The notes under the pieces are model-generated. The model had not been told where the DNA came from. It saw nothing but the letters and a program-made list of their open reading frames with translations, and did no database searches. Below are positions 17,600 through 19,270 of a DNA stretch of 64,000 nt, one piece after another (the stretch's first letter is position 1; each line of letters starts with the position of its first letter). The stretch spans positions 248,001-312,000 of the forward strand of contig QPGO01000057.1 in assembly GCA_008632985.1 (NCBI GenBank). Reading direction: 5' to 3'. A program made the position numbers and the translations under genes. The DNA is from Psammoneis japonica. Lineage: Eukaryota.

Positions 17600-19270
17600 T
17601 GTTGACACAAACACTCTGTTGTTGCCAATCTATCTTCATTGATGCTGTCACCCCCATTATGATTGCATACATTGCACCACTCATTCTCTTTGTCAATCTC
17701 CTGCTGTGCGTGTTTCACGGCAAGCAGAACCACGGCCGAGTCGTTGGCGGTTTTCTCCGAAAAGCACGGGACAAGATTCGCTGCACGATTCATGCTCTCG
17801 TGCCCTTTGTCGTTGCGATCTGTGAAGTTCTCCTCACCTCACATGCTGGGACATTCGTGCACTCTTCATTGAAGTTGATTGGTGATGAGGTCCATTTCTT
17901 GCACCTTTCCAAACTGTCGAAATCATTGACGACCTCACCACACTTCTTTTTGGGATCGAGCGTGTGATGCTGTTGCAGCTGCTCTTGCGGTTGCATTGGT
18001 TGCATGGACCGTTTGTTGGTTCTTCCACTTCATCTGCGTTCCTTTGCGGTTTCCACCCCCGCGGCTGCTGCTGTTGAAGCGCAAACTGGTTGCACATGGG
18101 CGCATCAGATGGAAACCGGACCGAGCGATGCTTGAGAACCGTTGCGTTGGTGATGCTCCTCCCAATCCAACTGGTGTGACTGCTCCAAGAATTCTTCAAA
18201 TCCCTTGCTTCACCCACATGATGCCCGCGTTGGATGTGGATGATCAGAGATTGGCTGCAGCGCAGGTTGAGCTTGACCAAAAACAAGGCCGATGCATGCG
18301 TGAGTGTCATGTGCCCAAGGTGTGATCACTGGCATGGCTGGGTGTGGACTCCAGCGGCCATGGAACCGGCCAAGGCTCTTGCTGATCCAGTGGAAAAGCA
18401 TGTCAAGTGGAAACCTGACCGAGTGATAACTCAAGACTTTCACATTGGCGACATTCGTCCAGTCCCAACCCATGTGCCTGCCAAATGCGTTCTTTGACAT
18501 GCCCCTTGCAAGCCGTGTGACACCCGTGTTGAATGACGGGCTGCGACGATGCTTGAATTTGATGTGGGTCAAGAAGAAAGCATTCGTCACTGGGACTCTG
18601 ATCTTTGGTGTGATCACTGGCGTGGCTGGGTGCGGACTCCAGCGGCCATTGGACCCGCTGAGGCTGCGGACAACAACCCCATTGCTGACAATGCCTCGGA
18701 TGTTTTGGACATGGAACCGGCTGAGGATGCGGACAACAATCTCTAAATGCTGTGGAGGAAGCAGTTCCTGATGTTGTTTGAGAGCCTTGGGAAGCCTTGA
18801 ACAAGCCTGCTGTGACTGTTGACGACGCACCAGACAATGCGGAGGTGGGCGTTCCTGTGCTGTGCTGGAGGAACGTATCGTTGAAGCCTTGGACGATCCT
18901 GCAGTGGATGTGGATGATTTGACAATCGACGGAGAGGCAATCATTCCCGCTCCTGTCATTGAGGAACCTGCTGTTGCTGAAGCCATGGACGATCCTGCTG
19001 TTGCTGGACACGAGGATGAGAAAGTCGTTCTTGGAGTCGCAGCCGAGGAACCTGACGACACTGTCATCGTTCAGGACATGGCTGCTGACAACGATCCAGG
19101 AGCAGAGGAGGATGTTGCTCCTGATGCTGCACTTGTGAGAAACGAGGAGAAACAAACCCAACCTGTCCCTTTGAGATGCTCGCCCAGAGGCTCGGTGGAG
19201 CAACGGGCAGTGTCTTTCTTTCGTCCATTACTGGGCGTGTCGTGCGTAGATCTGCAAGGATCATGAGTCG
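17600..19270 (+). pseudogene. Decayed ORF of an unknown, probably multicopy family; TpA-erased island with internal repeats
   Basis: Broken reading frames with duplicated WKPDR and CDHW(H/R)GWV(W/R)TPAA motifs (~18320 and ~18610), an acidic PAV-repeat tail, virtually no Tyr; no TpA seen in 17701-18420. Confidence 0.55.

Follow-up and report, generated by a model that had tools for sequence, protein, structure and literature searches.

Near-total TpA erasure with partial CpG loss in a broken copy of a putative multicopy gene family of the diatom Psammoneis japonica

Can the loss of the dinucleotide TpA be separated from the loss of CpG, and what kind of sequence is it that has lost them? The question is raised by an island at 17669–19228 of a 64,000-nucleotide (nt) stretch of the Psammoneis japonica genome (assembly GCA_008632985.1, contig QPGO01000057.1, positions 248,001 to 312,000 of the forward strand). 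This whole stretch is referred to as the window and all coordinates are positions within it; its GC content is ~47%, and its observed over expected ratios (o/e) are 0.50 for TA and 0.83 for CG. The island is probably a dead copy of a lineage-specific multicopy diatom gene family, which has been locally hypermutated at TpA and in which CpG decay has just begun. The dinucleotide footprint is mutational and specific to this copy, and the loss of TpA is complete where the loss of CpG is partial. The features of the locus are as follows.

17669–19228: TpA-erased island of 1560 nt, with o/e values of 0.04 for TA, 0.71 for CG, 1.69 for TG and 1.33 for CA
17334–20600: stretch with many related contigs (multicopy family and flanks), of which only 17669–19228 is the TA-free part
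17659–19266, + strand: broken open reading frame (ORF) of the family copy (pseudogene), with ATG at 17659 and a final TGA at 19264–19266, the reading crossing three frames
18319–18377, + strand: internal repeat copy 1, 88% identical to 18607–18665, with a period of 288 nt
18607–18665, + strand: internal repeat copy 2
~18740 (18740–18746), + strand: 2-nt insertion relative to other copies, causing a frameshift into a TAA at 18744–18746
18779–18781, + strand: in-frame TGA, which is GAA in other copies

The background set consists of the 17 long gene ORFs of the window (23,365 nt), where TA, CG, and TG plus CA occur at 33.9, 60.6 and 143 per kilobase (kb), with o/e values of 0.38–0.67 for TA and 0.85–1.19 for CG. 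The corresponding densities in the island are 1.9, 50.6 and 192 per kb. It holds 79 CG but just three TA (at 18427, 18744 and 18876), against ~53 TA expected at the genic rate. A preliminary description of the locus had reported that 17701–18420 lacks TpA and contains more than 30 CpG, and this is borne out, with 0 TA, 38 CG, 88 TG and 55 CA in these 720 nt. The TA-free run that begins at 17669 extends to 18426 (759 nt between the bordering TAs) and is the second longest of the window, the longest being one of 1588 nt in an island at 35–41 kb. At the genic rate, the Poisson probability of finding no TA in 758 nt is 7e-12 and that of finding three or fewer in 1560 nt is 3e-19; as the longest TA-free run in the background ORFs measures only 162 nt, chance is excluded as the cause. 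AA, AT and TT are not lowered in the island (o/e 1.20, 0.99 and 1.07), and hence TpA is lost specifically and not as part of a general shift from AT to GC. Moreover, TA density is back to normal ~10–35 nt beyond both island edges, such that the change is confined to the kb scale.

The CpG depletion of the island is mild and co-extensive with the TpA-free zone, the o/e being 0.62–0.82 in 500-nt windows inside the island and 0.94–1.15 in adjoining windows on either side. With genic density as the reference, ~94% of the TpA has been lost, in comparison to 16% of the CpG by density or 27% by o/e. If both losses began together from genic densities, TpA has disappeared roughly nine times faster per site than CpG (-ln 0.057 versus -ln 0.73). 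The earlier contention that the two losses are separable, with that of TpA the faster, is thus upheld, and both the right flank of an island at 25 kb and a tandem duplicate discussed below agree with it. The accompanying phrase, TpA loss without CpG loss, was right on TpA but overstated for CpG, which is not untouched given its lowered o/e and the CG sites of other copies that read TG or CA here. At ~53.5%, the GC content of the island is the highest among the five islands of the window, which fits gains from TA>TG/CA that have not yet been offset by losses from CG>TG/CA.

The same changes can be followed into the protein. The ORF at 17659–19266 encodes a hydrophobic N-terminus, followed by units of ~288 nt and then by an acidic Pro/Ala/Val/Asp repeat tail, and identical peptide motifs run on from frame to frame, which points to frameshifts and not to three separate genes. 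As had been noticed at the outset, the decayed ORF is essentially without Tyr and has many His and Cys: the pieced reading of 516 codons contains one Tyr (0.19%, in comparison to 2.07% in the 17 ORFs), where ~11 would be expected. His stands at 3.88% (2.49% in the 17 ORFs), Cys at 2.52% (1.55%) and Trp at 2.33% (1.06%), and the surplus of His plus Cys amounts to ~12 residues. A deficit of Tyr together with an excess of His, Cys and Trp is the outcome expected from TAY>CAY/TGY and CGG>TGG changes. The first internal repeat copy has CAT..TGG at positions reading CGT..CGG in the second, a difference that reads as CpG decay within this gene copy.

The footprint can be assigned to this particular copy through comparison with its relatives. 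Contigs of the single public sample found to contain this DNA, sequenced in two runs termed X1 and X2, were aligned to 16000–35999 at a likeness of at least 80%. In total, 539 X1 contigs align to this 20-kb stretch, most of them less than 95% alike. The summed word depth over 17334–20001 is 850–1650 in X1, in comparison to ~55–60 on the single-contig flanks, and 400–1175 in X2; one diverged contig of 3078 nt extends to 20604. None of the runs listed for this stretch is an RNA run; X2 is recorded as 'DNA?', and contains a joint that removes 32173–32262, a 90-nt GT..AG intron that is kept in X1. Its depth is also very uneven, with zero depth over 25338–26671 and over the start of the island at 35 kb. 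The intron-removing joint and the uneven depth indicate that X2 behaves like complementary DNA (cDNA).

Over the 20-kb stretch there are 1076 differing places. The 40 best supported by depth were listed, and 29 of these are in the island. Eight of these 29 sites are TG or CA in the window and TA in the other copies; five are A>G changes (giving TG) and three are T>C changes (giving CA) on the + strand, which means that both strands have been hit. At nine sites CG in the other copies corresponds to TG or CA in the window, and at two the window has CG and the other copies TG or CA. The remainder comprise six other transitions, two of which form the adjacent pair 18228/18229 at a window CG site, and four transversions; the window has TA at none of the 29. 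The check that had been proposed, a search for paralogues with a count of TA->TG/CA against CG->TG/CA changes, did recover related copies and gave 8 versus 9 of the 29 listed sites. Two further listed TA losses, at 17637 and 17644, lie just upstream of the ATG, and five of the six loose ends listed for X2 contain at least one TA.

The two runs also bear on the state of the window copy. X2 carries solely the letter of the other copies at 29 of the 29 listed island sites. X1 carries the window's own letter at a depth of at least 41 at 22 of them, and a depth of 96–243 at some of these hints at a few additional DNA copies in the mutated state. From these letters, TA-bearing copies are apparently present in the cDNA-like run; as contigs show presence and not absence, silence of the window copy is not claimed. 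The two extra nucleotides at ~18740 are missing from other contigs at 338 of 403 depth in X1 and 547 of 547 in X2, and the in-frame TGA differs from the GAA of the siblings (18779 T>G, 18780 G>A) at all aligned depth in both runs. As the siblings read through both the insertion and the TGA, the window copy is a pseudogene relative to them. Downstream of the island, at 19335–20600, the summed depth reaches its peak (~1650 in X1 and ~1050 in X2) and the TA content is normal; this segment may be part of the same repeat unit or a second one. A perfect 14-nt tandem pair is found at 20162–20189, in the TA-rich spacer downstream of the island.

The separation of the two losses can also be judged from the remaining islands of the window, which, together with a tandem duplicate inside one of them, are listed here.

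~25300–26800: comparison island, TA o/e 0.08, CG o/e 0.49, no Pfam hits
~35250–40800: comparison island, TA o/e 0.04, CG o/e 0.15, no Pfam hits
~44100–45800: comparison island, TA o/e 0.17, CG o/e 0.30, no Pfam hits
~60050–64000: comparison island continuing past the window's end, TA o/e 0.10, CG o/e 0.31, no Pfam hits
37964–38514 and 38513–39072, + strand: tandem duplicate in the 35-kb island, ~550 nt, 90.6% identical over 545 aligned positions

The statement in the preliminary description that these other islands have lost both dinucleotides is correct (TA o/e 0.04–0.17, CG o/e 0.15–0.49), and TG and CA have an o/e of 1.6–1.85 in all four. The CpG deficit of the islands is matched by an excess of TpG and CpA, as is characteristic of methylation-type decay. 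The five islands sum to ~14.3 kb, or 22% of the window. Across them, TpA loss is uniformly near saturation (o/e 0.04–0.17) whereas CpG loss ranges widely (o/e 0.15–0.71). At its right flank (windows starting at 26251–26501), the 25-kb island resembles 17669–19228, with o/e values of 0.09–0.13 for TA and 0.57–0.73 for CG. In the tandem duplicate there are 32 mismatches, including 27 transitions, and 14 of the positions form seven adjacent TG<->CA doubles. Such doubles result from one ancestral TA or CG that was converted on opposite strands in the two copies and are very unlikely to arise otherwise, which indicates that the islands arise by mutation. Furthermore, CG in one copy of the duplicate is opposed by TG or CA in the other at four sites and TA is present in either copy at none, from which it follows that TpA erasure is finished whilst CpG decay is still running.

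A total of 76 TA survive in the islands. The preceding base is a pyrimidine for 76% of them (46% for TA outside the islands) and the following base is A for 47% (20% outside); the process may disfavour this context, or later transversions in T- or A-runs may have produced it. A runs test revealed no strand-coordinated (processive) TG/CA runs in the five islands (z of -1.8 to +0.5, the same as in genes), and no similarity was found between the islands at the DNA level. The segment 25338–26671, which has zero depth in X2, is at single-contig depth in X1, and the X1 contigs across the 25-kb island depart from the window at 10 letters and by 7 gaps over 4397 nt. The 25300–26800 island abuts the 5' end of a TLC-domain gene at 24395–25408 (- strand), which has an X2 depth of 76–86.

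What, then, was the target of the erasure? No Pfam family was found in the six frames of any of the five islands (for 17669–19228 at E<=0.1). No terminal repeats, either long terminal repeats or terminal inverted repeats, were found in 16500–21500, and no poly(A) tail, target-site duplication or reverse transcriptase was seen at the island, such that it lacks the transposase, reverse transcriptase or integrase domains and the terminal repeats of a classical transposable element (TE). The claim that the locus is a multicopy gene and not a classical TE is in agreement both with these results and with the elevated summed depth. The middle 131-amino acid (aa) ORF frame had no phmmer match among 1.84 billion representative proteins, a word-indexed search with the N-terminal 102 aa found no match among longer proteins, and a degenerate 30-nt pattern had no match in metagenome contigs. 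The C-terminal protein query gave 343 pattern matches in metagenome contigs, none of which was a relative, and the middle ORF query had no match in viral contigs. The N-terminal query gave a single match in viral contigs, 22 residues long at 55%, with an E-value valid only among 10 candidates, and this was rejected as chance. The family looks like a host multicopy gene, although a foreign origin may have gone unrecognised. In its layout, with Trp-rich units of ~96 aa and the acidic Pro/Ala/Val/Asp tail, the family protein resembles a signal- or membrane-anchored repeat protein; that it acts at the cell surface or in the cell wall is no more than a guess.

The mechanism that is proposed consists of two processes. 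The first is a hypermutation in which A would be replaced by G within 5'-TpA-3' of either strand, yielding TpG or CpA, and which would have gone near to completion; within a reading frame it would change the Tyr codons TAY to Cys (TGY) or His (CAY). The second, slower process, CpG to TpG or CpA, would just have started in this domain and be far advanced in the four other islands. The TpA step may be catalysed by an adenine deaminase directed at silenced DNA, as has been suggested for the chlorarachniophyte Bigelowiella natans, and the CpG step may be the deamination of 5-methylcytosine (5mC) set by the diatom CpG methylation system. The island at 17669–19228 would then be younger than the other islands. 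The earlier suggestion that it is a young target is consistent with the data, if not proven.

For B. natans, two integrated viral regions are reported to mutate at ~6e-7 per site per generation (Mettrop et al., bioRxiv 10.64898/2026.01.13.699255). According to the same preprint, 230 of 231 hot-region mutations in mutation-accumulation lines are A>G or T>C, all at TpA and giving TpG or CpA, the genome has 124 clusters of TpA-depleted, CpA- and TpG-enriched 1-kb windows, and an ADAT2-like adenine deaminase is proposed. Neither CpG nor diatoms are mentioned in it (bioRxiv 10.64898/2026.01.13.699255). The island is best filed as a further instance of this type of TpA footprint. As in B. natans, the change is confined to TpA giving TpG or CpA, as seen at eight of the 29 listed sites and in the TA o/e of 0.04. 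The regions are likewise strictly local and of kb scale, the long-term TpA depletion is coupled to CpA and TpG enrichment, and many of the affected sequences are without annotation. Unlike in B. natans, the host is a stramenopile, and the target appears to be a paralogue of an endogenous multicopy family without detected viral or TE homology. Erasure is also near total, with an o/e of 0.04 in contrast to a Rho of 0.45 given for the nucleocytoplasmic large DNA virus (NCLDV) region of the preprint (bioRxiv 10.64898/2026.01.13.699255). Finally, CpG decay accompanies the TpA loss in the diatom, and the mutation rate that was measured in B. natans is represented here by a footprint only.

The CpG component has a ready counterpart in diatoms, where the CpG methylation of TEs is reported to depend on DNMT5a and where DNMT4 enzymes related to RID, the enzyme of fungal repeat-induced point mutation (RIP), are described (PMC9998398). 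Like 5mC-type decay, the change observed is of CpG to TpG or CpA in silent intergenic islands, strong in four of them and incipient in 17669–19228. Unlike the present case, that process cannot remove TpA, and CpG loss in 17669–19228 lags far behind the loss of TpA. It could nevertheless be argued that a single activity, such as a deaminase acting on both A and C in DNA, removes the two palindromic pyrimidine-purine steps, TpA fast and CpG slowly, giving two rates from one machine. Both losses are present to some degree in all five islands, the CpG o/e is lowered inside the TA-free zone only, and ADAT2 enzymes are reported to deaminate A and C in DNA, as cited in the B. natans preprint (bioRxiv 10.64898/2026.01.13.699255). 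In the hot regions of B. natans, however, the mutations reported are essentially without C>T (bioRxiv 10.64898/2026.01.13.699255), and the CpG methylation of silent diatom DNA already supplies a cause for the CpG decay (PMC9998398). A single machine would also have to produce a CpG o/e that varies from 0.15 to 0.71 among islands whose TpA o/e stays uniformly at 0.04–0.17. A common activity is therefore considered unlikely, though it is the alternative that survives best.

Two further kinds of context-dependent mutation invite comparison. Fungal RIP causes C>T changes mainly at CpA and thereby creates TpA. Like a target of RIP, the locus is a duplicated gene copy that is inactivated and full of context-specific transitions on both strands. 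Unlike RIP, the process at work here destroys TpA, mutates A and raises the GC content (~53.5% in comparison to the ~47% of the window). The substrates of ADAR-type A-to-I hyperediting, and of the APOBEC-type hypermutation of animal retroelements and viruses, are RNA or replication intermediates in single-stranded form. Both resemble the island in having clusters of deamination-like transitions, a 5'-neighbour preference (U or T before the edited A) and a defence footprint. They are unlike it in that the change here is in chromosomal DNA, affects both strands and is saturating, and is known from its footprint alone.

An explanation at the RNA level would have double-stranded transcripts edited from A to G with a 5'-U preference and then returned to the genome by cDNA copying or conversion. 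This would account for a TA-free zone that matches the coding part, with edges 10 nt from the ATG and 35 nt from the stop codon, and the family is indeed at high depth in the cDNA-like run X2. Yet both strands were changed at the listed ancestral TA sites, TA was lost also outside the ORF at 17637 and 17644, and the other islands are equally TA-free although non-coding. Many rounds of editing would moreover be needed for a near-complete erasure, and the traces expected of a returned copy, namely reverse transcriptase, a poly(A) tail and a target-site duplication, were not seen. Such a route is accordingly regarded as very improbable.

It is harder still to maintain that the avoidance of TA is the native composition of the family, through selection against UpA in mRNA or through amino acid content. 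T|G codon junctions are naturally frequent in the acidic repeat half and the genes of the window are themselves already low in TA, but a native composition is contradicted by the TA found in other copies at eight of the 29 listed island sites and in five of the six X2 loose ends. A copy broken by a frameshift and a stop is also not under selection, and none of the genes, over 23 kb, has a TA-free run beyond 162 nt. Least credible of all is a sequencing or assembly artefact, for which no supporting evidence was found: modified bases can give systematic miscalls on some platforms, but X1 contigs at an even depth of ~55–60 are nearly identical to the window over the 25-kb island and its flanks (although X1 may be the source of the assembly), and X1 has the window's letter in the island at most of the listed sites.

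The reading as a dead, hypermutated family copy has its own difficulties, which should be weighed together. Contig depth is not copy number; moreover, X1 may be the source data of the assembly and hence is possibly not independent of it. The 8:9 ratio of TA to CG sites comes from 40 of 1076 differences that were chosen by depth, and so is no estimate of rate, and the polarity of the changes assumes, without an outgroup, that the majority of the other copies is ancestral. The excess of TG over CA (o/e 1.69 versus 1.33) stems from the acidic repeat half at 18427–19228 (TG 1.74, CA 1.17), where NNT|GNN codon junctions can explain it, such that composition contributes to the footprint. A sense-strand mutational asymmetry, with TG far above CA, was considered and rejected, since it is limited to that half and the listed ancestral-TA sites changed both ways. 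The TA-free zone begins 10 nt after the ATG and stops 35 nt before the stop codon, whilst related contigs go ~330 nt upstream and ~1.4 kb downstream of it, and no model considered explains limits that match the ORF. Lastly, the viral targets of B. natans are of foreign origin, and viral or TE homology was not found for the target here.

The window is nuclear DNA, and its genes are long and intron-poor. Among them are a TOG/CLASP-like ORF of 1850 codons and genes for a GSK3/MAPK-like kinase, for a TLC-domain protein, for an [FeFe]-hydrogenase and for a FUT8-like fucosyltransferase. The top match of the [FeFe]-hydrogenase is 70% identical; the closest named matches are from the diatoms Attheya and Amphora (52–56%), with green-algal enzymes at ~50%. 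The gene is of algal type, with large-subunit C-terminal and small-subunit domains, and at 42307–43950 it sits between the erased islands of 35–41 kb and 44–46 kb. The named matches of the fucosyltransferase are all from diatoms, Attheya at 48–53% and then Seminavis, Cyclophora and Skeletonema. The 90-nt intron at 32173–32262 links a TPR ORF (30346–32211) to a RING/CUE ORF (32263–33231). In both runs there is a contig in which 87 nt (34478–34566) and 106 nt (34627–34734) are replaced by 3 and 20 letters, which is probably an allelic indel variant in or beside a PDZ-domain gene.

The first measurement of a dinucleotide-specific A>G hypermutation in chromosomal DNA dates from 2026 and comes from one chlorarachniophyte. 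No report of TpA depletion or hypermutation in diatoms was found in the literature searched, with most subscription journals and bioRxiv supplements outside its scope. The island adds the same footprint in a diatom, which belongs to a different major and ecologically dominant lineage, and adds it at saturation. With TpA erasure completed and CpG decay still at its very start, the locus either orders the two processes in time or separates them. Since TA-bearing siblings persist, apparently also in cDNA, the family offers a natural before-and-after pair with which the mutation spectrum and the marking of individual copies can be addressed. For genome annotation, such islands explain 'orphan' stretches in which Cys, His and Trp are abundant and Tyr is scarce. 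It may tentatively be proposed, as a suggestion to be taken seriously without being relied upon, that diatoms own the same TpA-directed A-to-G genome-editing defence as the rhizarian alga, and that it acts on silenced copies of host families and on unrecognisable junk, before and independently of CpG-methylation decay. If this is true, there would be an old system, spanning the stramenopile, alveolate and rhizarian (SAR) lineages, that marks and kills DNA by erasing one dinucleotide, and the five islands that make up about 22% of this window would be its product.

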